From Candidatus Heimdallarchaeota archaeon (GTDB lineage: Archaea > Asgardarchaeota > Heimdallarchaeia > JABLTI01): a DNA stretch of 32,000 nucleotides. The stretch spans positions 120,001 to 152,000 of the forward strand of contig JAUWKS010000002.1 of NCBI GenBank assembly GCA_030614005.1. Reading direction: 5' to 3'. Shown in pieces: positions 1,412 to 32,000 of this stretch (position 1 is its first letter; every line of letters starts with the position of its first letter). The notes under the pieces were generated by a model. It had not been told where the DNA came from. It saw nothing but the letters and a program-made list of their open reading frames with translations, and ran no database searches. A program made the translations under genes and the position numbers.

Positions 1412-1528
1412 AGCAAATAAAAAAACACCTTAAAACATAAGCTTAGAAAAGATTAAAAAGGAAAAAAGAACAGAAAAAAAGTAATTACGCCCTGATAGTG
1501 TAGTACGGCTCATCATCTTCGGCTGTCA

Positions 1529-1567
1529 AAGCCAAGAAATGTGCACTGCAAGCTTTTGGCTGCAGAG
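1529..1567 (+). other. tRNA intron 1 (39 nt, canonical 37/38 position)
   Basis: BHB: central helix CTGT/GCAG, bulges CAA and AGC, inner stem AGCCAA/TTGGCT, outer stem TCGG/CCGA. Confidence 0.9.
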
Positions 1568-1577
1568 CCCGATGGAC

Positions 1578-1610
1578 ATGAATGTGCAAAGAAAAACGCA
1601 TTCACCATTA
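1578..1610 (+). other. tRNA intron 2 (33 nt, non-canonical, variable loop/T-stem junction, about 48/49)
   Basis: BHB: outer CCCG/CGGG, central ATGG/CCAT, bulges ACA and TAA, inner TGAATG/CATTCA. Cleavage after the second nucleotide of each bulge restores GGAC-ACGGG. Confidence 0.88.
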
Positions 1611-1730
1611 ACGGGTTCGAATCCCGTTCGGGGCGCTTTTTCCCCATTTCCCATAATACATAATTATATAATCAAATAGTTATTTTATAAAAAAGTTTTC
1701 TTTGTCAAGATTTTTCTAGATAAAAAATAG

Positions 1731-1766
1731 AACAGATAAAAAAGGTAAAGACCTAATTTATCTGTT
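1731..1766 (-). terminator. Long stem-loop followed by a T tract on the minus strand; likely 3' end of the cas7/cas5-HD transcript or of a guide RNA
   Basis: AACAGATAAA-aa-AGGT-aaag-ACCT-aa-TTTATCTGTT inverted repeat. The minus strand continues CTATTTTTT. Confidence 0.55.
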
Positions 1767-1770
1767 ATCA

Positions 1771-1794
1771 GAATCCCATTCGGAGCGCTGTTTC
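1771..1794. repeat. Degenerate copy (21/24) of the tRNA-Asp 3' end plus trailer (1619-1642); att-like remnant or guide spacer
   Basis: gaatcccAttcggAgcgctGtttc vs gaatcccGttcggGgcgctTtttc. Mismatches at 1778, 1784 and 1790. Confidence 0.85.
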
Positions 1795-1833
1795 TACTTC
1801 TTAACAGTTTCTTATTACTGTCTTAACTACTAG

Positions 1834-2838
1834 CTATGTTAACGCTTTTTTCTTTTCGCTACTCATGCTAGTAATTCGATGCATCTCAGCATCTCTGATA
1901 GTGTTAAGATCTTCATCTTCTTCATCTATCGATGTTGAGACATTTCTTACTAGGTATACTTTTTCTCTGCTAATTTTCAACCATTGATTGTAGTAGCTAG
2001 TTATTGCAAGATTTACCATTAGTAGTAAGTGGTTTTTGAGTGAGTTTCTTGCATATCTAAAAGACACTACTACTCTATCTAATTCTATAGATTTGAGTAT
2101 ATAATCATACAGTTTATTGGTTGATTCTTGTCTTGCCTCTATTTCTTTTGCTAATTTAACAAAGTCTATCTTACCGTTTTCGAAATCATATCGTCCCTTT
2201 GTCAAATAGCTGGTTTTTCTGTTCATGTATGCCGCTACTTGGTCGAAGTATCTTACTATTGGGTGTAAATTATTCCCTTTTATTTTCCTCACATGATGAT
2301 TTTGACATGCTTCTCTTATTTCCTCATCATTGATTTCTACTTCTTGGAAAATCTTACTCATATGCCTCTCTGTATGCACAAAATCATGAAGCATCAGAGC
2401 TCGAAGTAATCTTTGTAGTTTCTTAGGATAATTTGTTCCCAAACCCTTTCGTATTCTGAATTTCTTTCGTTTTGGTTCTGAAGGTATTTTCTTGTATTTT
2501 TCTTCTTTATACTCTAACCACTTTACTTTTCCAAGGCCATCATTCTTTTTACTTCCTAGATATTCCTTCCTAAGATATTGTTTGATTGTTTCTTTTCCTC
2601 GAGTTTCATTACAATCTACTGTTGTTACTCTTACGAATCCTCTATATGCTAGGTATTCATCGGGTATTTTTCGTTCCCCTTTAATCAATTTTCCAACATA
2701 ACTTTTGAGTGGTTTTTCATTTGTTTCTAATTCTCTAACTATTCTTATCCAGACCTTTCCTTTCTTAAGAAGTGGTTTTGAAGCAATTATTGGTGAGAGT
2801 AATTCACCAGTCAGAGTATAGAGTGTTCTTATTTCCAT
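1834..2838 (-). CDS. Cas5-like RAMP domain fused to a circularly permuted (Cas10-type) HD nuclease
   Basis: The N-terminal ~110 aa end in the RAMP G-rich loop YLGSKKNDGLGKV. The C-terminal part has LMLHDFVH, NHH, YFDQVAA and a late SLKNHLL motif, the motif order seen in Cas10 HD domains. Overlaps the cas7 stop by 10 nt. Confidence 0.72.
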   Translation of the reverse strand: MEIRTLYTLTGELLSPIIASKPLLKKGKVWIRIVRELETNEKPLKSYVGKLIKGERKIPDEYLAYRGFVRVTTVDCNETRGKETIKQYLRKEYLGSKKNDGLGKVKWLEYKEEKYKKIPSEPKRKKFRIRKGLGTNYPKKLQRLLRALMLHDFVHTERHMSKIFQEVEINDEEIREACQNHHVRKIKGNNLHPIVRYFDQVAAYMNRKTSYLTKGRYDFENGKIDFVKLAKEIEARQESTNKLYDYILKSIELDRVVVSFRYARNSLKNHLLLMVNLAITSYYNQWLKISREKVYLVRNVSTSIDEEDEDLNTIRDAEMHRITSMSSEKKKALT

Positions 2839-3596
2839 GCTTTCAACACCTCATCCATCTCTTTCCAGAGATTTTGTTCTGATTCTTTTTCGATTACTTT
2901 TCCTTTCTTTACAGTTCTCGTCCTTGTTACTTCTTGCAAATTCACTTCTAGTAGGTCTATTTTCCCAGCACCGTTATTTGCCGATGCACCCCACCGTATT
3001 TCGGGCATGTAAAGAATACTTTTCAAAAGGAATCCTAGTAACTCTTGATCTAGCTCTTTTAGTAGTTCGATCTCCAAGTTAAATTCACCAGCAATGAATC
3101 GTTCTCTAAAATCTTGTGTGCTTCTCTTTGAATCTTTCATTAGAGCATTTCGTATTTCAGTAGATAGATGTACTTTCTGTGCGTCATTAATTTCTTCTTT
3201 GATGTTATCGGATGTTATTATCACAGGATTAAATCTCACTACGGATTGTTTCTTTAAGGACCCCATTAATTTATGTCTAATGCATTCTTCTTCTGGATAG
3301 CATGAACCATTAAGATGATACCCTTCAGGTAGTAATGGTTCTCCTTTCTGTGTTGTCTTTTTATCAGATATGTGACATACTTCTATTTCTCTTTGTTTTG
3401 CCAGTTCCATCATTGCGTGATTCAATACGCCTCTTAATCCTTTTACTAAGTATCTCTTACCCTCTTTTCCACCATTTGGATTATAGACTAATAGCAGATT
3501 TTTCATATTCCCTCTTGCCATCTGACCATTTCCAGGTTTCGCTATGGAGGTTCTAACAGTTATTTTTATTCGCTTAAACGTTCGAGAGACAAACAT
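2829..3596 (-). CDS. cas7: Cas7-family RAMP backbone subunit (Csm3/Csc2/Csf2-like)
   Basis: KGLRGVLNHAM helix, Cys-containing insertion (EVCH...GSC...ECIRHKLMGS), VVRF strand, C-terminal WGASANNGAGKI G-loop. Likely start is ATG 3596 (MFVSR) after a GGTGA SD; the ORF track start at 3608 overlaps that SD. Confidence 0.82.
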   Translation of the reverse strand: MFVSRTFKRIKITVRTSIAKPGNGQMARGNMKNLLLVYNPNGGKEGKRYLVKGLRGVLNHAMMELAKQREIEVCHISDKKTTQKGEPLLPEGYHLNGSCYPEEECIRHKLMGSLKKQSVVRFNPVIITSDNIKEEINDAQKVHLSTEIRNALMKDSKRSTQDFRERFIAGEFNLEIELLKELDQELLGFLLKSILYMPEIRWGASANNGAGKIDLLEVNLQEVTRTRTVKKGKVIEKESEQNLWKEMDEVLKAWK

Positions 3597-3708
3597 AAGT
3601 TTCACCATATTAATGTAATATATATTTAATATATATTATTTATCTATTTAAACGCTTCGCTGAGAATATTTATATTTAAATTTAATTAGTACAATATAGT
3701 GATGTGCT

Positions 3709-3885
3709 TTGGCAGAAAATGATGAAGCGGTGTTAATTTATTTCAAAAGAAAAGTAGGTAAAATTGGTGACAGTTTACATATTACAATACCTAAAGAAAT
3801 CGTAGAGGCTCTAGACATTAAACAGGGAGACACTTTGGGAATTTTTGCAAAGGATTACAAAACAATCGAAGTGAAAAAACAATGA
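3709..3885 (+). CDS. AbrB/MazE/SpoVT-family DNA-binding protein (58 aa, TTG start; not in ORF track)
   Basis: My translation: MAENDEAVLIYFKRKVGKIGDSLHITIPKEIVEALDIKQGDTLGIFAKDYKTIEVKKQ. Has the swapped-hairpin signature (ITIPKEIxxxLxIxxGD). Its stop overlaps the next ATG (ATGA). Confidence 0.85.
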   Translation: MAENDEAVLIYFKRKVGKIGDSLHITIPKEIVEALDIKQGDTLGIFAKDYKTIEVKKQ

Positions 3886-4331
3886 GTTTAACAACAACTG
3901 AATGGATAACAATAGGATTTAGTATAACCAATACACTACTTGCTTTTGCAGTTTTCATATATATATGGTATACAAACAAGACAAAAGGTCCTAGAATATC
4001 TATTGTTGATTATATCTCAAGAAAAATGGATTCTGATGAGATAACTATTAATTTTCGATATGTAAATAGTGGAGATACAAAAACTATTTTGATTTTTACT
4101 GGGTTTATTGAATTTAGAGATCAAGCATTTGAAAGTTCAGTTACAAAAAAAGAAGCAATAAGTCCAGTAAAAGAGATACAACAAAATCATGTACATTTTA
4201 AAAATTCACTTCCGCAAGGGGGGATTGTAATCGATGAGACAATATTACAAATTAGAGGATATTATTTTGATCATAATGGAAAGAAGAAAAAATTAAAACA
4301 AAAACCAATTCAACTAAATGAAATAAAGTAA
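3882..4331 (+). CDS. Hypothetical membrane-anchored protein
   Basis: Single N-terminal TM segment (WITIGFSITNTLLAFAVFIYIWY) followed by a beta-rich soluble part. Coupled to the AbrB gene. Confidence 0.6.
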   Translation: MSLTTTEWITIGFSITNTLLAFAVFIYIWYTNKTKGPRISIVDYISRKMDSDEITINFRYVNSGDTKTILIFTGFIEFRDQAFESSVTKKEAISPVKEIQQNHVHFKNSLPQGGIVIDETILQIRGYYFDHNGKKKKLKQKPIQLNEIK

Positions 4332-4382
4332 ATTTCGTGGTGTTCTTATTTTTCGTACAAATAAAGCTAAGAGGAACGAGAC

Positions 4383-5957
4383 TTGACAGTACTCAATTGG
4401 CAGAATGATCCAATATACTTTGATGATGTATCTAAAGAAGTCAATCACTGGATAAATGCCAATGAGTTGATGGAAAATAATCGACAAGTGGAGATCTTTC
4501 TTCCAAACACAGAAACACTCAATCTTTTCCCGATCCTAGTACGAAGAGCGGATTTTCTCCGGGTAAACTCTTCCGATCGCATCCTTGCCAGGTTGCCTTT
4601 CATACAGCTTACAGAGAAGGAAAAGGTACTATTCAAAAACCAAGAATTACTCGTATCCGAAAAATTGCGTGATTACTTTTACCAATCTGATAATCGCAAG
4701 ATCCTTGAGTGGCGAGACATCCTTCGGAACTATCTTGAGCGTGGAGCCATTCCTTTACCGTTCTTCCGTTGTTATCCTGATGAGTGGGGGCTCGATTTCC
4801 AAGACCGAATCCTTGAATTCTCTCGAGGGGAAACTTTTGCAATGCCTACTAGGTTAACTACTGAGCTTGCTTATCTTTGTGGCATGGTCAATGGTGATGG
4901 CAATCTCACTAAATATGTTCTCAATATTGTTGATTATTCCATTGAAAACATTCGACAGTTAAAGGAACAGTTCGAACGATTATTCCAACAAACAGGAAGG
5001 ATTCAACTACAAACGGAGAATTGCCCAAAACTCATTATTACTAATCTCTGGGTTGCACGTTTATTTTCCTTTCTTACGGATCAACCAATTGGTGGTAAGA
5101 AGTACAGTAATTTACGTGGACCACTACTCTTTCTAGAGCAACCCTTACGTTCGCACTATTGGTCGGGAGTTATGGATGCGGATGGAAGTTATACTAATAG
5201 AAACATTACATTTACAAGTGCAAGTAAAAATTATACGCAAGATTTTATCTCATTTATGAAATCAATAAGTATTCTAGCAAAACAGTATTCGAGAAATGAT
5301 GGAACGTTTCAAGTATATATTTCAAGAAAATTTCATGATATATACAAGTCACAATTATTATGTTTACACCCTGAAGAGAAATTACAATTTAATAAATTAC
5401 AAAAGGGAATCAGTAAAAACTATGGTGTACGAATCAGAAAAAAATTTGTTGATTTTGATAAAGATAAGATGATAAACGGTTTTTTTGACTTTAGATTCCT
5501 TACACAAGTCCATATTATTGGCTTAGGAGATTTTCTTCGAATCGAAAGAGAAACTAAAACCTTAAAGTCCTTTTCAAAAGAATTAGGAGTGAGTGATAGT
5601 TTTCTCTCAATGCTTGAAAACGAAAGAAGTGCAATACCAATTGAATTATTATTGAAAATCCTTCAAAGAAAAAATAAACAATTAATGCATTTTCTTTTGT
5701 TAAATAAACAACACATTCTCTATAGAAAGGGAAGTTCCAAACCTATTAAATTAAATTTGAAACCTAACAAAGAGCTTCTCTATTTGGCTACAAAAATGAC
5801 TTTCCACAAAGCTTCTATTAGTTTACCTTTAAAAAAGCAAGATTTACAAGATAAAATTACAGACCGTTTTGGAGTTATTATAAAGAAAAATAGAATTGAT
5901 AATAAATTACTTCTCTATTATTTTACTACTTTTTGTAAGCTAAAAAAAATTGATTGA
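4383..5957 (+). CDS. Free-standing double-motif LAGLIDADG endonuclease with unknown N-terminal domain and XRE-type HTH (copy 1)
   Basis: Motifs LAYLCGMVNGDG and YWSGVMDADG, both with the catalytic Asp. HTH LKSFSKELGVSDSFLSMLENERSAIP. No intein splicing residues seen. Confidence 0.85.
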   Translation: MTVLNWQNDPIYFDDVSKEVNHWINANELMENNRQVEIFLPNTETLNLFPILVRRADFLRVNSSDRILARLPFIQLTEKEKVLFKNQELLVSEKLRDYFYQSDNRKILEWRDILRNYLERGAIPLPFFRCYPDEWGLDFQDRILEFSRGETFAMPTRLTTELAYLCGMVNGDGNLTKYVLNIVDYSIENIRQLKEQFERLFQQTGRIQLQTENCPKLIITNLWVARLFSFLTDQPIGGKKYSNLRGPLLFLEQPLRSHYWSGVMDADGSYTNRNITFTSASKNYTQDFISFMKSISILAKQYSRNDGTFQVYISRKFHDIYKSQLLCLHPEEKLQFNKLQKGISKNYGVRIRKKFVDFDKDKMINGFFDFRFLTQVHIIGLGDFLRIERETKTLKSFSKELGVSDSFLSMLENERSAIPIELLLKILQRKNKQLMHFLLLNKQHILYRKGSSKPIKLNLKPNKELLYLATKMTFHKASISLPLKKQDLQDKITDRFGVIIKKNRIDNKLLLYYFTTFCKLKKID

Positions 5958-6033
5958 AGAAATAAATTATAATATTTCAGAAACAATAGAAGTGAATTGA
6001 TTACTAACTATTTTTGAAATAAACTATTGGGTA

Positions 6034-6156
6034 TTAGATATTAACTGTATACAACAACACAATAAAAACAATTCTAGCCATCTGCCCGTTACCAGGTTTC
6101 GCTATTGATGTTCTAGCGGTTATTTTTATTCGCTTAAATGTTCGAGAGACGTTCAT
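6034..6156 (-). pseudogene. cas7: Truncated 5' fragment of a second cas7 (28 homologous codons, then unrelated sequence and stop)
   Basis: MNVSRTFKRIKITARTSIAKPGNGQMAR vs MFVSRTFKRIKITVRTSIAKPGNGQMAR. 6073-6150 matches 3513-3590 at 69/78 nt. GGTGA SD retained (tcacc 6163-6167). Confidence 0.9.
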
Positions 6157-6280
6157 TTTTGTTCACCAATAAATTAAAGCATCATATTATTATGTTGTTA
6201 ATCATCATATATAAGCACTTCTCTGACCAATTTGAACAGCATTTTTAAATATTTTAAACCATCATTTATAGTGATTAGAT

Positions 6281-6457
6281 ATGGATGAAGAAAAAGATCC
6301 TAAAATTATCTTTAAGAGAAAAATAATCTTTAGCTCTGGAACACATCGGATTAGTATTCCATTAGAATTAGTTGAGGCACTCAATATTGAACCAGGAGAA
6401 GAAGTATTATGCTATCTTGATGGTTCAAAGAAGATAGTTTTTGAATTGACAAAGTAA
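6281..6457 (+). CDS. Second AbrB/MazE/SpoVT-family protein (58 aa; not in ORF track)
   Basis: My translation: MDEEKDPKIIFKRKIIFSSGTHRISIPLELVEALNIEPGEEVLCYLDGSKKIVFELTK. Same divergent position relative to cas7 as copy 1. Confidence 0.82.
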   Translation: MDEEKDPKIIFKRKIIFSSGTHRISIPLELVEALNIEPGEEVLCYLDGSKKIVFELTK

Positions 6458-6507
6458 TAATTTAGAACAGATTTTACCACAATTATTTGTAGAGAGTATT
6501 TAATTTA

Positions 6508-7263
6508 TTATCCATCCAATTTCAACAATTCGAGTGTTTCAGCATCCAGGAGGGTTTCTAATTTTTCCAATTCTACTGTTACGTTTTCTCCTACTTCTTG
6601 ATAGTGACAAAGGGTACAATATGCTTTTAGTGGAACATCCTTAATCTTGATATGATATAATCCTTGACGATATTTGTAAGCTTCACCAGAATGCTTTGCT
6701 TCTAAAGTTTCGGATCTGCATAGAGGACATTTCTTTATATTGTATTCTTCTGGTTTTATTGTTCGAATCGATCGTAATTGCTTCTCCACCATATTGATGA
6801 TTTGTTCTTCTTGTTCCTCTACTTCCAAGCTAAATGATGTAGTCTTGCAAGTACTATTACTACATACTTGTGCAGGTTTTTGTTCTAAAATTAACTCATA
6901 GTTAGTACCTTGTATCCACGAGCTCACTGTTCTTTTTATCAATAATCCGTCTTTACACACATGACAGTATATACCCGTTCTTTTATCCACGTAAGATAAC
7001 AATTCAAGGATTGAGTCAAATTTGAGATTATATTTGGCATAATCAAAAATATTAATTTGATAATGAGTAATTGTATTTCTTAGGGTTCGCAAAGCATTTC
7101 TATCTTGTGGGGTTAATGGGGACCCCTCTAATTTTCTTTCATATTTCGTTAGTAATGCGTCTTTTTGTTTTTTTGTAATATATTCTTTTTTAAGAGCATC
7201 TTCTATAATTTCTCTAAATTTCTCCTCTTCTTTGCCTGCGAATATTTGTGTCATTTCTCTCAC
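6508..7263 (-). CDS. Protein with two YgiT/MqsA-type zinc fingers; putative antitoxin or regulator
   Basis: CHVC...KPAQVCSNSTC and CPLC...DVPLKAYCTLC, each resembling YgiT-type CxxC...vPa.vCxxC. Adjacent to a DUF4258 gene. Confidence 0.65.
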   Translation of the reverse strand: MREMTQIFAGKEEEKFREIIEDALKKEYITKKQKDALLTKYERKLEGSPLTPQDRNALRTLRNTITHYQINIFDYAKYNLKFDSILELLSYVDKRTGIYCHVCKDGLLIKRTVSSWIQGTNYELILEQKPAQVCSNSTCKTTSFSLEVEEQEEQIINMVEKQLRSIRTIKPEEYNIKKCPLCRSETLEAKHSGEAYKYRQGLYHIKIKDVPLKAYCTLCHYQEVGENVTVELEKLETLLDAETLELLKLDG

Positions 7264-7331
7264 GGTTTTTTGGGGTTAAATGGTTAATATGGTTATTGTG
7301 TTTACTAGTAAGTAGTTATTTAAATATTTCC

Positions 7332-7343
7332 TACACATGTGTA
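7332..7343. promoter_or_regulatory. Perfect 12-bp palindrome TACACATGTGTA in the divergent TA promoter region; candidate operator
   Basis: Seen directly between the two divergent starts. Operator function is inferred. Confidence 0.35.
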
Positions 7344-7390
7344 AAATAAACATACACAAGTCTTAAATAGTTGTCCCCTTCTGTAAAAGT

Positions 7391-7705
7391 ATGAACAATT
7401 TGAGAGAAAAGGTAAAAGAGTTTGCTATTCGCTTTCAGAGAGGACATGGAGAGCTTCGTTGGAGAGAGCGAAGTATACCACCAGATGAAATTGAGGATAT
7501 TGTTCGACAATGGGATGTTATTGACGACACAAAAGATGGACGGTACTTGTTATGGGGGGAGTTAGATAATAAACGTATAATACATATACCTTGTTTTCTG
7601 GACATGCAAACTAAAATAATATGGGTACTAACAGTTTATTATCCGGATGATGAGAATTTCACAATGGAATCTAATTATAGAGTAAGGAAAACGATAAGCA
7701 AATAG
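7391..7705 (+). CDS. DUF4258-family (RelE-like) putative toxin
   Basis: H-x-x-x-R-x-x-ER-x-I start, GRYLLWG, IHI, and a VLTVYYPD...RVRK ending, matching the DUF4258 pattern. Confidence 0.75.
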   Translation: MNNLREKVKEFAIRFQRGHGELRWRERSIPPDEIEDIVRQWDVIDDTKDGRYLLWGELDNKRIIHIPCFLDMQTKIIWVLTVYYPDDENFTMESNYRVRKTISK

Positions 7706-7788
7706 ATTGTATTAGAAACAAATTTTTGCAGTATTTTTAGAGAAGAGTATTTATTCCTCATTTAACCAAAGCTGCTGAGGAAAAATAA

Positions 7789-24693: not shown

Positions 24694-27600
24694 ATGAGTA
24701 AAGCTGTTTCTTCCACAAAAAAACTTCCTCTTTGTCTTTCTATGGGTGTGACAGAGGTGCTAGAAGGAAGGGAGAGCATAACAGGTAAAGACCTTCTAGA
24801 TTATTTTTCTTTACAGGATAAAACATCTTTTCTTACTAACACGAAAAATTTTGTTCTTGTTTGTGGAAATAAACAGAGACCAAATGACTATGAGCCTAAC
24901 AAATTCCTCGGCTCTTTTGGTGTTCGAAGAGCACTAGCAATGAAGAATTACACTCGATTGCCTGTAATTATTGTTACCAATAACCGTTTTGAAACTTCTA
25001 TGCTTATTGAGCAGTTTAATAAACTAACTTCTTGTTTCAAACTATACACATCAAAGAAAAGTCAAAGAGAAAATATTAATGAAGAAATTAAAGCGGACTA
25101 CCCGAATGAAGCAGACTTTATACTGACAACATATAGCTCTTTCTGGGATCAAACAACAAACAAGGATGATCCATCTTCAGAACAAATTATCTTAATCAAT
25201 CCATTAAGACTAAAATATATCATCGAGGATGTAGGCAAATTAGATGTCATTTTTGGCTGTATACATAGGCATAAGCGAATAAGACCGAATTATTCCTTCA
25301 TTCTTGATGAAGCACACTACCCAATTCTATCAAAGAAAGATTATCAATTCTTATTTAAAGCAGGCAATAGTCTTTTCTTTAGATGCAAAGAGAGAATGCT
25401 TTTAGAATATAATAATCCATTCAGAGAAGCTATTTCTCACCTAACTAGTGATCAATTCCAGCTATTTATTTTCACAGATCTTTTTAGGGGAAGAAAACTG
25501 ATAAAAGAACTGGTTAAAGAGTTCAAATCAACTTTTACTTATAAAATGTACCTCTACAGTAATGGTATTTTTCCAACAATTGATGAAAAATTGCCTTCAA
25601 AAGAACTTCTTAAAGAAAAGAATAGGCTTGATAAGAAAGTTTTAAGTGGAATTGTAAAACAAATACATTTATTCACAAAAGGAAGCAACACCAAAACGAT
25701 AACAGGAAAAGTAACTTACAGCGATTTTGATTTTAACGTTGGCCTCAGTAAACAAGAGATATCTCGAACGTATTCCTGGGATAAACCAAAAGAAGCAGCA
25801 AGATTCCTTCCGGTAGTCACTAAGGAAGAAGGAAGATTCAAACTTAGCGCTCTAGGAGAAGAAATATTTGGTGTGTCATCATGGTTTAGTGGTGTTGAGG
25901 ACAATTTTAGCGAACTTTTAGCTCACTTTTCTAGGATCCTTTACAAAAACAAGAAGGAAAACCACAAATTTTCCGTGAAAGAGATAATCATTTTTTATCT
26001 TCAAATGATAGATTGCAATTATGAAACAGTGAAAAGATTTGAGGAGGCAATTCCTGAAAAGTTAGACACAGAAAAAAAGAATGACCAAATGATCGCAATC
26101 CTTGAAAAGAAATTCAAGCCACTAGTTAAAAATTTCAAAAGAGTTTCAGCAAAAAAAATCCTTGGTGCTTTTGAAAAATTAATGAATACTGAAGCATACA
26201 TTTTCTATCAACAATTCAAGAATTATAAGAAAGAAGAGAAACGTTCCTGGGAAGAGAGAAGGAGAAAAGCGGTCCTAAGAAAAGCAAATTATCAGCCCTT
26301 AGCTGTGAAATTCACAGGTGATTATTATCACATGTTTTGGCAAGACGCCAAGAAGTTATTGGAAGAATTAGTTGAAGAAGGGCGACTTGTCAGGATTATT
26401 TCTTACAATGGTAGAGGAAAACCGATACTAAAGTACCTTACTCAAGAATTACTGGATGCGAACCCTCATTTCCAAAAGAATTGCGGGAACTGTCAATGGT
26501 ACAATCAACGCTTCAAAACATGCACCTTTTTACGTTTAAAACAAGCGAAAAACCCGAGTACAATGACAAAAGAAGAATTTGAATATGCTAATGATACACT
26601 AAGATTTGAAGCAACTGCTTGTGAGAAGTACATAGAAAAAGATGATTTTCAGTCGATGGAAGGCAATGTTAAGTTCACTGCTACCGTTGAGAAGTTAACT
26701 AAAGATATGAAGAATATATCAATGAGCTTTTTATCAGGAGATATTGCAGAGTACAAGTATCATTGTCTTTCTTGCCAGGAACAAATAGAAGAATTTGGTA
26801 CAGGTGATAGAATCTTCTTTCCAAGGAGAAGAATTATTTGTCCTAACTGTTCGACAGTTTATCTTCAACTAAAAGATCGGAAAAAAGTAAAAGTGAAAAT
26901 GGAGGAAAGAGATCATCAAAGAAGCTTATACTTCAAAGAAACTGGGACCATTACTGACGTTTTGAGGAAGAAAGATTCTGCTCGTGTTTTTGTCATACAT
27001 GACATAGATAGTGCTAGATTAAGAATCAACGAAGAAAATGATGAGCCACCTTATTTTCTAGTGATAGGTAAAAATGAAATAGCTCTGGATTTGGTGCAGT
27101 TTGTCTATTTTTCAGGTATACGTCATCAAGAATTAGAAGAAACAATGTGGTTACTAGCGGACCTTGATTCTGAAAGATACAAATACAAAATTAAGCGAAC
27201 AGAACAAAAGTCAAAGAAGAAAAAAGCAAAAAGTCGATATAAAAGACCCTTTTCAGCTGAAGACTATTCCAATATCATAAAAATAATCAAAAAAAGCTCC
27301 GATAAAGAAATATTCAACCATCAATTTTTGGAAGCAAGGCTTATCTCAAATATTGCTGGAATGTTATCAATAAAATATGAAATAGAAATGGAAAGCTTCT
27401 CTGACTGGCATTACAATCACCAATTGTTGGAAATGGTTGATTTGCATATGAAAGTAATTGGCGGAGAAGTAAAGTCAAGCTATTATGGAACTCAATTAGA
27501 AGCACTTAGCAACAAGCACTTTTTTGACTTTTTGAAGGGAGAAGCTGCGAGAGTAGGTCTCTGGTCAAAAGGGCGAGTGAATAGCAGGCTAGTGATAGAT

Positions 27601-28872
27601 ATGCTTAAATCCTTCAGCCAAAAGGTTAGTAGTGCTTTTTCACCTTTAGATGCTTTACTGAATCAAATGTTGCGCTCATTCAGAGTAGAATTAGATCCGT
27701 TGTTTCACAGGATGGGCATGGATCCTGCAATGTTAGGTCCAGGTTTGTTTCATAGACGAAAAACAAAATCTGATATTGACCAGCTAGGTTTTTACTTCGA
27801 CTTAATAGAAGCTGTGCGAGTTCTAGTGCTTGTAACTATTGTTAAAGCTATTCGAGATGGCACCCTCGGTTTTGATGATTGTAAATACGTACTAGGTGAG
27901 GATGGACAAGAGATCTATCAAGTGAAAGGTTCTTCCCTGGATAAATTCACCAATCTGGTTTCAGAAGCTCTTGAACAAACCGTTTCACATCAAGGGCAAA
28001 GAATGACTTTTAAACAAGCTTTTGAATTCAATCTTTTGTGCTTAAGAGTTGCTTTTGAAAAATGTCTTTCAGAGATAGAAGAACATAAACAAATTACTTT
28101 GAAAAAAATCAAGAAGTGTTTTGATGATTCACTTTTTATTTCATTTACTTTCTGCCCTGAAGGACTAGAAGAGAAGTTAATAGATTTAAATCGATTTGCA
28201 AGTAAAGAAGGAGTAATTTTCTTTGGAAAAGAACAAGAAGTTTTGGAACGAAAAGAAACAAGAGAAAAATATAGAAAAGAAGTAAAGAGTCATTGGTACA
28301 ACGAAAATGTGATTAAAAAGCTAAATGCTTTTCGGTTGACCAAACATCAAATTAAAGAGCAAGATAGAAGTTTGCTTGTTATTTTGTTGTTATTGTACAA
28401 TACTTTTGAAAGAGATTTTACAATTGATGAATACTCAACTAATCATTTTAAGGAATTACTTGGAATAACTCAAAACCAAGTACAGAGATTACTTGATCAA
28501 ATGGTTTCCAGTGGATTGCTTCTTCGAGAGAAAGTAAATAGAAAGAATTTCTACGAGTTAAATCTTAAAAATCTAAATGTTAAGGACTTTCGTTTTCTTC
28601 TTGGAGTAAATCTCTCTTTAGAGGAACATCTTCAAAGAGAGTTTATCATCAATATTCCTCCTCATTTAGAGCGAGTTGAAAAGATTATTTCTCAAATCAA
28701 ATTGCTTCCTACTAATCAACAAAAAGTCATAAGAAGTAATTTTTGGTTTGATTGGGAACCAACAGAAATTATTCGAAGAGTAATTGTTTGGGCAGAAGAG
28801 AAAGCTGTAACTAGTAAAGCATTTTTCAAAATGATAGGTGATATTCATGGTAAAAAGCAGTTACATTTTTAA
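24694..28872 (+). CDS. cas1: Giant multidomain Cas1-family integrase: degenerate SF2 helicase-like N-terminus, wHTH/Cys clusters, Cas1 domain, C-terminal wHTH
   Basis: LEALSNKHFF, SPLDALLNQML, GMDPAMLGPGLFH and FYFDLIEAVR match the Cas1 core. CGNCQW, CLSC and CPNC parallel the 674-aa Cas1. LTTYSSF and FILDEAH lie in the N-terminus. Confidence 0.82.
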   Translation: MSKAVSSTKKLPLCLSMGVTEVLEGRESITGKDLLDYFSLQDKTSFLTNTKNFVLVCGNKQRPNDYEPNKFLGSFGVRRALAMKNYTRLPVIIVTNNRFETSMLIEQFNKLTSCFKLYTSKKSQRENINEEIKADYPNEADFILTTYSSFWDQTTNKDDPSSEQIILINPLRLKYIIEDVGKLDVIFGCIHRHKRIRPNYSFILDEAHYPILSKKDYQFLFKAGNSLFFRCKERMLLEYNNPFREAISHLTSDQFQLFIFTDLFRGRKLIKELVKEFKSTFTYKMYLYSNGIFPTIDEKLPSKELLKEKNRLDKKVLSGIVKQIHLFTKGSNTKTITGKVTYSDFDFNVGLSKQEISRTYSWDKPKEAARFLPVVTKEEGRFKLSALGEEIFGVSSWFSGVEDNFSELLAHFSRILYKNKKENHKFSVKEIIIFYLQMIDCNYETVKRFEEAIPEKLDTEKKNDQMIAILEKKFKPLVKNFKRVSAKKILGAFEKLMNTEAYIFYQQFKNYKKEEKRSWEERRRKAVLRKANYQPLAVKFTGDYYHMFWQDAKKLLEELVEEGRLVRIISYNGRGKPILKYLTQELLDANPHFQKNCGNCQWYNQRFKTCTFLRLKQAKNPSTMTKEEFEYANDTLRFEATACEKYIEKDDFQSMEGNVKFTATVEKLTKDMKNISMSFLSGDIAEYKYHCLSCQEQIEEFGTGDRIFFPRRRIICPNCSTVYLQLKDRKKVKVKMEERDHQRSLYFKETGTITDVLRKKDSARVFVIHDIDSARLRINEENDEPPYFLVIGKNEIALDLVQFVYFSGIRHQELEETMWLLADLDSERYKYKIKRTEQKSKKKKAKSRYKRPFSAEDYSNIIKIIKKSSDKEIFNHQFLEARLISNIAGMLSIKYEIEMESFSDWHYNHQLLEMVDLHMKVIGGEVKSSYYGTQLEALSNKHFFDFLKGEAARVGLWSKGRVNSRLVIDMLKSFSQKVSSAFSPLDALLNQMLRSFRVELDPLFHRMGMDPAMLGPGLFHRRKTKSDIDQLGFYFDLIEAVRVLVLVTIVKAIRDGTLGFDDCKYVLGEDGQEIYQVKGSSLDKFTNLVSEALEQTVSHQGQRMTFKQAFEFNLLCLRVAFEKCLSEIEEHKQITLKKIKKCFDDSLFISFTFCPEGLEEKLIDLNRFASKEGVIFFGKEQEVLERKETREKYRKEVKSHWYNENVIKKLNAFRLTKHQIKEQDRSLLVILLLLYNTFERDFTIDEYSTNHFKELLGITQNQVQRLLDQMVSSGLLLREKVNRKNFYELNLKNLNVKDFRFLLGVNLSLEEHLQREFIINIPPHLERVEKIISQIKLLPTNQQKVIRSNFWFDWEPTEIIRRVIVWAEEKAVTSKAFFKMIGDIHGKKQLHF

Positions 28873-31800
28873 CAAGAAAGAAATCTTCCCGATTAATCCT
28901 GGTAAACCCCGAAAATGGATCACTATTCATAACCTTCCTGCTACTGAACCAAGGAAAATAACTGGTCTCACATGGCAAGAAGTACTACCTGGTTATGCTC
29001 AAGCTTTAGCAGAAGTGATCGAAGAAATAACTGGTAGTAAGAACCCCTATGAGCACCAAGAACAAGCAATAAAGCATTTATTGAATAATTCTGCTAATAA
29101 GAAATGCCTGGACCTCATAATTAAAGGTGGAACTTATTCAGGAAAATCACTATCTTTCATCGTTCCTGGTATCATCAAGCAAATAAATGAGGAAACGGAT
29201 TTTACAGTCATTTTTTACCCTTCGAAACAATTACTCCTAGACCAATTTGAAAGAGTGAAAGAGTATTTGGTGAAATTCGAGGAAAAAACAGGCATCAGAT
29301 TAATTTGTGAAAAGTACAGTGGAGATACTGGAAATACTAATTACTCTAAAGGGGTAGCTCGTGTAAATGATCAAGAGCTGAATAATTTAGAACAGAACCC
29401 GCCGAATGTCTTGCTTGCCACTTTTGACAAATTTTGGCATCATTATGAGAGTGGGAACAGCAGTCCGTTAATAAAGAAAATAGCATCTGCAAATTATCTT
29501 GTTTTTGATGAGATACATGCATTTGACGGTTACGCTGCAGGTAACATTAAGGGCTTTATTGCTATTCACAAGAAAGCTAATCCTCAGGGGCAATTTATAC
29601 TTTCCTCTGCTACTATAGCTAATGTTGAAGGATTCAGAGACGATTTCTTGCCTAATGCTAAAATAATTACTTGCCCACCAGTGAGAGGAGAACAAGTGTA
29701 TGTTGGCACAACAATTGAACACACAGTTTCACTGCTTGCAGATTTCTGGAAAGAAATGGAAAAAATGCCAGGAAAAACCGGTCTTGTTTTCCTTGATTCG
29801 AAAGAAAACATCGAATTATTAACAGACCTACTCTGTAGGAAACTCAAGCAGGATGACCCTTTCTTTGATCCTGACACTGTGCAGATGATCCACGCAGATT
29901 TGGAATATTATCATCGTAAAAGAGTGCAAGATGAGCTTCGAAAAGGAAATAGAAATATTATTAGAATTCTCATCTCTTCCTCAGTCTTGGAGCTTGGTGT
30001 AAATATCCCTAACATTCAAACAGTATTTAATATTGGCATTCCGATAACACAGAAAGATGGTATTATTCAAAGGATGGCTCGCAATCGCTCTGTTCCCGGT
30101 GAAAGAAGAACGAATGTTTTTCTGTTCGACCTTTCTAAGAAACGTGACAGTTTTTACTGGAACAATAAGGAAATCCTCAAGGACATTCTTGAAACGAATG
30201 CTTGTAACCCTATTCTTTATCCCAAACTTAACCCGAAGATATTGGCGGGGCAAATTATCTTGCACCTTAGATACGGTATTAATGACTTTGGAGAGATAAT
30301 GCAATTCTTCCTTGATCAAGGACCACAAGTTTATCGCTTAGCAAGACAACAATACACTAAACTTGTTAGTTTAAATGTCCTGAAAAAAAGCAGCGATGGT
30401 AAAGTTCTCTTCACAAGCCAAGGAGAAAAAAAGCTAAAAGTGCAAGCAAAAAAGAAAAATCATCTTGTTCCGTTCTCCATACGAGCTATTAAAAATAATT
30501 GGTCTATTAAGAAAAAATTTGGAGAAAGTTCTTACTGGCATGAAAATAGAAAATCTAGTCTTGGTAAGATCTCTACCAAGGATGTTTTAAAGAAAGGATT
30601 GCCTGACAATATTATTACTCGTAACAAAAAACAGTATCTTGTTACGGATAAAGATCAGCAATTAAGAACTATTTACGTTAAAGAATTACTTTCTAAAGAA
30701 AAAAGTGCTGGAAATTTTTCCGGAATAACTAATCGTTTACTTGACCCTCAGATAACTCCTGGTGTTTTCTCTAAGAAAGTTAAAGGAACAAAAATAGTTG
30801 ACATTAGTTTTGGTCAAGTTTCAATTAAGCAACAACCTTTAGCTATTGTTAACTCTAATCCCGAAAAAATTAGTTCTAATAATACTCATGTAAAGGATAA
30901 CAAGAACTTTTTTTGGCAAGAATTAACCCCAAAACGCTCGGAAGAATTGGCTAATACTGAAAAGTCAGATGGATTAGCCATTACATTAACTTCTGATATT
31001 CCAAAACCAAAAGAACTTACAACTAAGAAATTACTAGAATATTTTGGGCGCGTCCTACAAGTTGAGATTGAAACCGTTCTTTCAATTCCAGGTAGTGAAT
31101 TCGCACTTGCGATTAATACTAATCAATTAGCAATTTATGATAAAGGAGACCCAAATGGAAACTCAGAGTATTTGTTTAGTCATTTACAAAAAGTCGCTGC
31201 TCGAACGCTCAAAAGATTGACAGATTGTTCTTGTGAAAATGGTTGCAAAAATTGTTATGGTGAAATTCTTGGCTTATTTCCTAAAGGAGTAAAAGAATCA
31301 CTAAAAATACTTTTCAAGGATTTAACGCTGATTTCTGAAGTGGAGTTTGATGATGAATTGTTGCATGAAATCAATCCTGAGCAAATGAATTTCAAAGAAA
31401 ACAGAATTATTGCTTTTTCAGATATTCATCTTACAAACAAGCTTTGTTTCCAGGAAGAATTTTTCGAAGCGCTCAAAGAGCAGAGTAAACAAGCTGATAT
31501 TATCATCATCAATGGTGATTTATTAGATACTATTTCAGAAGATAGTTATCAGGCTTTTAGTGAATTCAAAAGCATGGCTATACGTGAAGGTTTTTGGTCG
31601 AAACTAGTTCTGATACGCAGTTCTTCTATTCATGACGGCAATCTTGAGCAATTCACAGGTTTCCTCCATCAAGATTATGTTGAAGTTGAGATCGGTTCTG
31701 AACAAGTATTATTCGTCCACGGAAATAGGATCGGCATAAATCCTAGTTTAGTAGATAAAACAAGTATAGGAAAAGCTGTCTTTGAAGCAAAAAAGGCTTT

Positions 31801-32000
31801 AATAAAGCCGGGCAAGATTTGGCTTCCTGTTATTCTCCCTGAAACTCATCTTGTTATTGGCCATGTTCATCTCCGATTTTATAATGAACGCTTTCGAGTT
31901 TATGGTTCTGGTCACTGGACAAAAAAAGGTGACCCTTACAATCAACGATGCATGATAATTCTTGACCCTAATTCTTTAGATGTGCCAAAAATCGTTTCAT
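28847..32000 (+). CDS. DEAD/DEAH helicase with DUF1998 (YprA/Hrq1-like) fused to a calcineurin-like metallophosphoesterase; 3'-truncated by the window and absent from the ORF track
   Basis: ATG 28847 after a GGTGA SD, overlapping the cas1 end. Checked in one frame: PYEHQ, GGTYSGKS, VFDEIH (29507), SSAT, CSCENGCKNC (31226), FSDIH (31421), NGD, VHGN, GHVH (31862). No stop seen in the segments I translated; at least 1051 aa. Confidence 0.88.
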   Translation, partial: MVKSSYIFNKKEIFPINPGKPRKWITIHNLPATEPRKITGLTWQEVLPGYAQALAEVIEEITGSKNPYEHQEQAIKHLLNNSANKKCLDLIIKGGTYSGKSLSFIVPGIIKQINEETDFTVIFYPSKQLLLDQFERVKEYLVKFEEKTGIRLICEKYSGDTGNTNYSKGVARVNDQELNNLEQNPPNVLLATFDKFWHHYESGNSSPLIKKIASANYLVFDEIHAFDGYAAGNIKGFIAIHKKANPQGQFILSSATIANVEGFRDDFLPNAKIITCPPVRGEQVYVGTTIEHTVSLLADFWKEMEKMPGKTGLVFLDSKENIELLTDLLCRKLKQDDPFFDPDTVQMIHADLEYYHRKRVQDELRKGNRNIIRILISSSVLELGVNIPNIQTVFNIGIPITQKDGIIQRMARNRSVPGERRTNVFLFDLSKKRDSFYWNNKEILKDILETNACNPILYPKLNPKILAGQIILHLRYGINDFGEIMQFFLDQGPQVYRLARQQYTKLVSLNVLKKSSDGKVLFTSQGEKKLKVQAKKKNHLVPFSIRAIKNNWSIKKKFGESSYWHENRKSSLGKISTKDVLKKGLPDNIITRNKKQYLVTDKDQQLRTIYVKELLSKEKSAGNFSGITNRLLDPQITPGVFSKKVKGTKIVDISFGQVSIKQQPLAIVNSNPEKISSNNTHVKDNKNFFWQELTPKRSEELANTEKSDGLAITLTSDIPKPKELTTKKLLEYFGRVLQVEIETVLSIPGSEFALAINTNQLAIYDKGDPNGNSEYLFSHLQKVAARTLKRLTDCSCENGCKNCYGEILGLFPKGVKESLKILFKDLTLISEVEFDDELLHEINPEQMNFKENRIIAFSDIHLTNKLCFQEEFFEALKEQSKQADIIIINGDLLDTISEDSYQAFSEFKSMAIREGFWSKLVLIRSSSIHDGNLEQFTGFLHQDYVEVEIGSEQVLFVHGNRIGINPSLVDKTSIGKAVFEAKKALIKPGKIWLPVILPETHLVIGHVHLRFYNERFRVYGSGHWTKKGDPYNQRCMIILDPNSLDVPKIVS

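Follow-up and report, generated by a model that had tools for sequence, protein, structure and literature searches.

A composite island beside a tRNA-Asp gene of a Heimdallarchaeota archaeon, built from independent units with Cas1-fold proteins

The variable region beside a tRNA-Asp gene of Candidatus Heimdallarchaeota archaeon is a composite island assembled from independent units. It probably consists of an ARAMP-type gene set (module A) and an autonomous aCas1-TnpB transposon (module B), with a Cas1-fold protein as the putative integrase. The region was analysed in a window of 32,000 nucleotides (GenBank GCA_030614005.1, contig JAUWKS010000002.1, positions 120,001 to 152,000, here G000:C9:120001-152000; GC ~32%), in which an earlier note had inferred possible successive insertions of a single Cas1-integrase family at one tRNA. 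The assembly, G000, comprises 3.62 Mb in 126 contigs and is 90% complete. The window was annotated with an open reading frame (ORF) listing and Pfam, PADLOC and NCBIfam scans, and tRNAs were searched for with ARAGORN and Rfam. Coordinates are window positions unless a contig (C) or locus (L) label is given. The sister genome is isolate HM7_B34, whose tRNA-Asp region is locus L019.

The extent of the island was set by comparison with congeners, in which the gene order is PolB - p151 - tRNA-Asp - (hydrolase) - DUF6320. The interval between tRNA-Asp and DUF6320 is 85 nt in G006 and 33 kb in G000, and the island was therefore placed from window position 1637 to ~34,600. An alpha/beta hydrolase was tried as right-flank marker and rejected, being present in one congener only. 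PolB, ~9 kb upstream, is chromosomal, syntenic in all congeners and outside any element. L019 carries module A at the matching place beside tRNA-Asp and lacks a 2.5-kb insert with one LAGLIDADG paralog, the NACHT gene and module B. A copy of module B lies 135 kb from module A on the same contig of the sister genome; in the window, module B sits in a protein-coding gene and has terminal inverted repeats (TIRs) and a TnpB. Successive insertion therefore holds in so far as a variable, tRNA-adjacent island was formed by separate events; a single family stacked by tRNA homing does not.

Module B and its site contain the following features.
20484-20907, minus strand: remaining left part of a 269-aa gene interrupted by module B, the L019 counterpart being intact (L019 comparison)
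20908-32075 (past the window end at 32000), no strand assigned: module B, 11,168-bp transposon (TIRs, empty-site comparison)
20908-21080, minus strand: structured tnpB 3' end and terminal repeat, omega-RNA-like, kept in short derivatives (minimum free energy z -4.0; compensatory changes)
20933-22573, minus strand: TnpB, 546 aa, D/E/D RuvC motifs present (Pfam)
22745-24373, plus strand: LAGLIDADG-HTH paralog c (LAGLIDADG_3+HTH_3)
24694-28872, plus strand: putative Cas1 fusion protein, 1392 aa, no family match (BLASTP to the 674-aa protein of module A; conserved residues)
28838-32014, plus strand: DEAD helicase with MrfA Zn domain and metallophosphoesterase (Pfam, PADLOC)

Module B is demonstrably a discrete insertion with defined ends. 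Extension along the contig, which the earlier note had advised, placed its right end at 32075 and revealed perfect 18-bp subterminal TIRs at 20915-20932 and 32038-32055. The left end reads GTTCC-T7-ATGGACAAATAGGACAT... and the right end ...ATGTCCTATTTGTCCATA...GGCAACAGTTGACACC, and the flank beside tnpB always closes in (R)ACC. The insertion (C9:140908-152075) interrupts a 269-aa gene that is intact in L019, with ~290 nt of the gene lost. The sister-genome copy (L051:8168-19322, 66-84% protein identity) occupies a site that is empty in G000 at C99:~2074. The four-gene unit is also kept between TIRs in another species. Its TnpB (20933-22573) had been left out of the earlier gene list.

Termini of module B recur at 31 places in G000, often at contig ends, and are those of miniature inverted-repeat transposable elements (MITEs) of ~330 nt, each made of the two module B ends and the final ~170 nt of tnpB. 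At least 12 MITE ends outside the island were matched to these termini. The retained tnpB region folds stably (z = -4.0), with compensatory changes between copies, and looks as an omega-RNA scaffold reading into the flank would. MITEs were located on contigs C1, C5, C11, C26, C30, C39, C45, C50, C66, C75, C76, C79, C85, C116, C117, C124 and C126, mostly <300 nt from contig ends, and the family probably causes many of the G000 assembly breaks. Four cold-seep DNA runs yielded no contig across module B and no circular junction, from ~4x contigs that are uninformative either way; contigs breaking at element ends fit other copies of the element. Contigs at depth 13-38 (genome ~4x) from three cold-seep runs join L108:7087 back to 3787 with 22 extra letters (window 26587 and 23287), which may represent a related element in another arrangement, or a chimera.

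Module A contains the following features.
1834-2838, minus strand: RAMP-HD protein (Cas5-HD-like), 334 aa, left end of module A (invariant HD motif; AlphaFold2 (AF2) model and PDB fold matches)
2829-3608, minus strand: RAMP (Cas7/Csm3-like), 259 aa (Pfam RAMPs 2e-7; PADLOC Csm3)
3709-3885, plus strand: AbrB/MazE-like protein, 58 aa (PF04014 1.2e-10)
3882-4331, plus strand: predicted membrane protein, 149 aa, no family (ORF, Pfam)
4383-5957, plus strand: LAGLIDADG-HTH paralog a (LAGLIDADG_3+HTH_3)
6034-6156, minus strand: truncated RAMP 5' copy (88% nt identity to 3513-3590)
6281-6457, plus strand: second AbrB-like ORF (ORF listing)
6508-7263, minus strand: zinc-ribbon protein (YokU-like), 251 aa, conserved in L019 (Pfam, L019 comparison)
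7391-7705, plus strand: DUF4258-like protein, 104 aa (Pfam)
7789-9360, plus strand: LAGLIDADG-HTH paralog b (LAGLIDADG_3+HTH_3)
9954-10739, plus strand: winged helix-turn-helix (wHTH) protein, 261 aa (Pfam)
10702-12726, plus strand: predicted Cas1-fold protein (wHTH, Zn ribbons and full Cas1 fold), 674 aa (weak PADLOC match, AF2 fold, conserved residues)
12713-13438, plus strand: 241-aa protein (p241), no assigned family, conserved partner (genome and locus comparison)
13438-14196, plus strand: Cas4-like PD-(D/E)XK nuclease (PD-(D/E)XK_1 1.3e-9; C...CxxC...C pattern)

Module A (1834-14196) behaves as a discrete block of 9.6-12.4 kb with borders at the stop codons of its two outer genes; the right end lies within a few nt of the nuclease stop codon. 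Paralog a sits within the 2.5-kb segment that the sister genome lacks; on either side of this insert stands a 78-nt direct repeat of the RAMP 5' end. A second copy of the module was found at C67:~37187-46800, with borders within ~45 nt of the RAMP-HD stop and within 4 nt of the PD-(D/E)XK stop. The site of this copy holds a rearranged, deleted remnant in G010 and nothing in G005, G006 and G008. In G008, module A stands inverted at tRNA-Asp; beside its PD-(D/E)XK stop is a 37-nt repeat of the tRNA 5' half (one mismatch, ending in the anticodon loop), and the slot upstream of its LAGLIDADG gene is filled by unrelated genes.

Most of the protein assignments made in the earlier note were borne out. 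Its full and truncated cas7 correspond to the RAMP gene at 2829-3608 and the 5' copy at 6034-6156, and its Cas5-HD to the gene at 1834-2838. Searches with the 334-aa product of the latter returned 91 homologs, all unnamed and nearly all from Heimdallarchaeota, with H151, D152, H159, H181, H182, D199 and H270 invariant. In the AF2 model (pLDDT 83), the top 50 PDB folds for the N-terminal domain were all CRISPR RAMP subunits. The invariant HD signature together with this domain identifies a predicted RAMP-HD fusion, consistent with "Cas5-HD"; the modelled RAMP fold is clear and does not separate Cas5 from other RAMP subunits. The product of 13438-14196, called Cas4, is Cas4-like by its PD-(D/E)XK_1 match and cysteine pattern, although no Cas4 model matched and a PDB sequence search was empty.

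The two proteins previously read as Cas1 were confirmed as very divergent Cas1 relatives, by predicted fold for the 674-aa protein and by sequence similarity to it for the 1392-aa protein. The 674-aa protein had no Pfam or NCBIfam Cas1 match and a single weak PADLOC Cas1 match. A PDB search with a profile from four Cas1-like paralogs returned no Cas1; the fold search alone reached it. A library-wide HMMER search with the family found 46 cluster representatives among 1.84 billion proteins, and an AF2 model built on 38 of these sequences reached pLDDT 91.3 and pTM 0.83. The 50 best PDB matches of this model (Foldseek) were all Cas1 or casposase, with 6opm, a casposase-DNA complex, in first place (E 1.8e-8); the alignments spanned ~370-470 columns, approaching the full length of the matched Cas1 chains. 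Residues R451, R455, N479, H509 and D519 are near-invariant in the family. The 1392-aa protein matched the 674-aa protein by BLASTP in the wHTH/zinc-ribbon region (3e-4) and the putative catalytic region (9e-6).

Searches for other mobility genes agreed with the earlier note, which had seen no array, PolB, TnsABC or tyrosine integrase in the island. No PolB was found inside the window by Pfam scans, and no large window ORF had a Pfam match to TnsA/B/C or TniQ. The assembly yielded no CRISPR-like array in an array scan, no cas1 and cas2 beside an array, no canonical Cas1 (PF01867), no Y1 TnpA (PF01797) and no serine recombinase (PF00239). The tyrosine recombinase family (PF00589) had a single match in G000, on contig C58. 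Since the elements contain no other mobility recombinase and the sole tyrosine recombinase lies on another contig, the Cas1-fold protein is the best candidate for the integrase.

The third recurrent component is the LAGLIDADG-HTH protein. The three LAGLIDADG paralogs reported in the window were recovered as LAGLIDADG_3+HTH_3 proteins (4383-5957, 7789-9360 and 22745-24373). The family resembles intein-type homing endonucleases (best PI-PfuI, 1.3e-6) joined to an Xre-type HTH, and both GDG/DADG catalytic motifs are kept in all 11 aligned paralogs. At least 13 LAGLIDADG-HTH genes were found in G000 by tBLASTn against its own genome and ORF clustering, each followed by one of several operons with a Cas1-like gene. 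Type A is wHTH - Cas1(674) - p241 - PD-(D/E)XK, and type A' has PD-(D/E)XK on the opposite strand, then wHTH - Cas1. Type B is Cas1(1392) - helicase-phosphoesterase, and B' is a more distant, split version of it. The upstream genes, usually divergent, are a RAMP + RAMP-HD pair, TnpB or others. A scan of species-representative genomes found 70 related loci, nearly all in a handful of Heimdallarchaeota metagenome-assembled genomes (MAGs) and >20 of them in one MAG; these LAGLIDADG/Cas1 gene combinations recur among them. As for the co-occurrence that the earlier note proposed to measure, 28 loci had an intact LAGLIDADG-HTH gene followed by 5 kb or more of sequence, and 22 of these carry a Cas1-like gene downstream. 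LAGLIDADG-HTH is the constant partner of every Cas1 variant, with TnpB or the RAMP pair in the neighbouring slot, a pattern that bears on how mobile elements recruit RNA-guided modules. A literature search found no paper joining LAGLIDADG, Cas1 and Asgard in the library covered.

The left anchor of the island comprises two features.
1489-1636, plus strand: tRNA-Asp(GTC) with two introns (ARAGORN with introns allowed; congener alignment)
1771-1792, plus strand: degenerate repeat, in direct orientation, of the tRNA-Asp 3' end, resembling an att remnant (alignment to the tRNA)

The tRNA gene was missed by ARAGORN without introns and by Rfam; its two introns were defined by alignment with congeners. 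The intron comparison took in the window tRNA, L019 and L095-L103: the gene carries two introns in G000, G010 and G009 and a single one in G004, G005 and G008, and is intron-free in G002, G003 and G006. The segment at 1771-1792, an imperfect match of 19-22 nt and the sole tRNA-Asp fragment within the island, differs from the tRNA 3' end at 2 of 22 nt in direct orientation, and its score of 29 is barely above the shuffle maximum of 28. The earlier note had called it guide-like. Its direct orientation is that of att remnants, which it would fit better, and it is missing from the orthologous L019.

Association with tRNA genes, also claimed for the whole island, applies to module A at tRNA-Asp and to A'/B' relatives; module B is not tRNA-associated. 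A tRNA gene and imperfect repeats (24-37 nt) of its 3' end delimit each relative, and in every case the tRNA 3' end faces the element. They comprise L069 (tRNA-Ala, 10.2 kb), L043 (tRNA-Leu, 8.0 kb, with an Orc1/Cdc6 gene), L050 (tRNA-Pro, 14.2 kb) and G000:C110 (tRNA-Ala, four repeats). No recognisable integrase was found inside them, and PF00589 is absent from L043 and L069. On C110 (34604-58449), the 3' ~37 nt of tRNA-Ala(TGC) recur downstream of the gene as four direct copies, at 51068, 54643, 57389 and 58413. The locus looks like a tandem stack of integrated segments, of which the first, 16.4 kb long, holds a B'-type LAGLIDADG/Cas1-like/helicase unit. A tRNA-Leu(TAG) lies ~100 nt upstream of the LAGLIDADG-HTH gene in G000:C63:33684-37250, L043:8067-11572 and L054:248-2064. 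In C63 and L043 it stands between that gene and a co-oriented tnpB, which the repeat-bounded element of L043 leaves out.

The units were compared with published systems. In reviews (PMC8730458, PMC12669027, citing Makarova 2020), ARAMP denotes Asgard systems derived from type III that lack an array and have homologs of Cas5 and Cas7. A distinct Cas1 is present in most of these systems, along with nucleases such as PD-(D/E)xK (or HNH), and the reviews add that new mobile elements may include some of the Asgard Cas1 homologs. By these descriptions, module A is like ARAMP in its Cas7-like RAMP, distinct Cas1, PD-(D/E)xK nuclease, Asgard host and lack of an array, and its predicted RAMP-HD would stand for the Cas5 homolog as one RAMP subunit among those the fold allows. 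Module A differs from ARAMP as described there in its sharp borders and its recurrence at different sites, and these features therefore favour a mobile element. In the text description of Altae-Tran et al. 2023, repeat-flanked Asgard aCas1-TnpB loci have TnpBs of the groups Cas1H-Asgard-1/-2, and aCas1 is proposed as a transposase (PMC10691335). Module B shares with these loci the Asgard host and a very divergent putative Cas1 linked to TnpB within flanking repeats, and loci related to it are almost all from Heimdallarchaeota MAGs. The hypervariable region and GTTCACTCA motif published for the sequence downstream of tnpB were not found near tnpB here, and module B is set apart from that text description by LAGLIDADG-HTH and the helicase-phosphoesterase. 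The earlier note had proposed a third kind of element; with ARAMP, its distinct Cas1 and aCas1-TnpB transposons already published, that proposal does not stand.

Likeness to other mobile elements is partial. Targeting of tRNA 3' ends is known from some casposons. A casposase (6opm, family 2, Methanosarcina) is the closest structure to the predicted Cas1-like fold, but the elements contain no PolB, module B has TIRs with no 14-15-bp duplication, and the tRNA-bounded relatives lack TIRs. Module B resembles IS200/IS605 and IS607 elements in its terminal tnpB, outward structured 3' region, insertion at a short motif without duplication and MITE derivatives, and differs in its true TIRs and 11-kb length and in that no TnpA was found in G000. 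CRISPR-associated transposons (CASTs) are distinguished by TnsA/B/C, TniQ and an array, integrase-type tRNA-integrating elements by an internal tyrosine recombinase, and canonical CRISPR adaptation by cas1-cas2 beside an array, none of which was seen in the searches above. What is added here is the composite history of one island, exact ends with empty sites, and a constant LAGLIDADG-HTH partner with TnpB or a RAMP pair. To our knowledge, Cas1 integrase function is known in two settings only, CRISPR adaptation and casposons, and for Asgard Cas1 relatives a transposase role in additional kinds of element has been proposed and never tested. The locus offers material for bench tests: exact termini, empty and occupied sites in sister genomes, MITE substrates and a four-gene machinery.

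In the proposed mechanism, the Cas1-fold protein would act as integrase or transposase, joining the ends of the element to target DNA. End processing would fall to the Cas4-like nuclease or the helicase-phosphoesterase, and LAGLIDADG-HTH would bind or nick specific DNA at an element end or at the target. TnpB with an omega RNA would cut the vacated or empty site, favouring retention, as in IS605/IS607. Several observations weigh against this account. All protein activities are predicted from fold and sequence, and a recombinase could be unassembled, as the assembly is 90% complete. Junctions of module B show no clear target duplication and nothing like the 14-15 bp of casposons; at most CC/ACC is shared. 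This absence is unusual for Cas1 chemistry, and together with the att-like repeats of the relatives, which carry mismatches as att sites do, it argues against a simple casposase-like mechanism. No TIRs scoring above shuffles were found in the tRNA-bounded relatives. No terminal repeats were seen for module A, with no detectable right-hand repeat in the window, and the second tRNA-Asp 3' copy expected at the right was found neither in the window nor in the next 18 kb. Module A stands at the same site in G000, G010 and G009 and so may now be fixed. RAMP + RAMP-HD pairs also occur without Cas1-like or LAGLIDADG genes, in 4 of 7 cases in G000.

An array-less CRISPR-derived immune system (ARAMP) is an alternative reading of module A and perhaps also of the module B Cas1/helicase core: the Cas1-like, Cas4-like, HD and LAGLIDADG nucleases would hit invaders, in a tRNA-linked defence island that moves only passively. 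The literature treats HRAMP/ARAMP as probable defence systems, the neighbourhood includes the NERD-NACHT STAND gene, an AbrB/MazE-like gene and other RAMP-HD pairs, and the shared site of module A in three genomes is in keeping with it. We nevertheless hold a defence role to be unlikely, given sharp-bordered blocks that recur at unrelated sites and, in one case, at tRNA-Asp in both orientations, tRNA-repeat-bounded relatives without another integrase, at least 13 LAGLIDADG-HTH copies per genome, and a module B that is demonstrably an insertion. Were LAGLIDADG-HTH itself the mobility enzyme, a homing endonuclease would cut a long site such as a tRNA gene, repair would copy the element in, and the Cas1-like protein would be accessory. 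It is the sole gene common to all architectures, its catalytic motifs are invariant and of intein homing type (PI-PfuI 1.3e-6), and the tRNA-linked copies have imperfect repeats. Homing cannot explain module B and its MITEs, however, because their many sites are unrelated and have ACC alone in common; it also needs homology on both flanks, where one short repeat only is seen, and we rate it as very unlikely.

An unassembled or lost conventional TnpA (Y1 or serine) acting in trans on module B and its MITEs, with the Cas1/helicase genes as cargo, would account for the terminal tnpB and for insertion beside a short motif without duplication, both typical of IS605/IS607, and the 90% completeness leaves room for one. 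We find this highly improbable, as neither recombinase occurs in G000, the four-gene unit is kept between TIRs in another species, and aCas1-TnpB linkage is recurrent in the published description (PMC10691335). In the model of the earlier note, a Cas7/Cas5-HD ribonucleoprotein guided by a tRNA-matching RNA would select where Cas1 integrates, on the pattern of CAST. The RAMP pair and TnpB do take the same slot upstream of LAGLIDADG-HTH in different copies, and the RAMP-HD gene ends 45-90 nt from a tRNA or tRNA fragment, so that a read-through RNA would be antisense to the tRNA. But the fragment is missing in the orthologous L019, other RAMP-HD copies have no tRNA nearby, the G008 element has other genes in the RAMP slot, and there is no array or repeat, the guide RNA being hypothetical; this guidance model likewise appears highly improbable. 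Composite assembly with a Cas1-fold integrase remains our preferred reading. A wider extension of it strikes us as a long shot: the Cas7-like/Cas5-HD pair and TnpB would be interchangeable terminal modules of one Cas1-driven superfamily, in which an RNA read from the element end into the flank would recognise the empty site. On this view the homing/retention role of TnpB would have passed, by independent recruitment, to a RAMP complex derived from type III, and the Cas1-like protein would integrate either at a stagger the size of a CRISPR repeat (24-37 nt, at tRNA genes) or with almost none (module B).

Three further window features lie outside the two modules.
59-1411: beta-helix surface protein (ORF and domain scans)
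14528-19771, plus strand: NERD-NACHT STAND NTPase, 1747 aa (Pfam; not at the corresponding place in L019)
19805-20284, minus strand: 159-aa ORF, no family (ORF; not at the corresponding place in L019)

The beta-helix gene is one of five beta-helix/NosD-like surface-protein genes between p151 and tRNA-Asp (G000:C9:113468-121411, L002), which are missing from this interval in G002, G003 and G006. Just past DUF6320 (G000:C9:155465-162448, L001:5465-12448), another RAMP + RAMP-HD pair precedes genes for a 564-aa protein and a HerA-like ATPase of 968 aa, with no Cas1 or LAGLIDADG genes there. Loci L023, L033 and L054 come from a Bathyarchaeia-labelled MAG (isolate SMAG_U14241) with Heimdall-type elements and the same tRNA-Asp context, and the label may be wrong.

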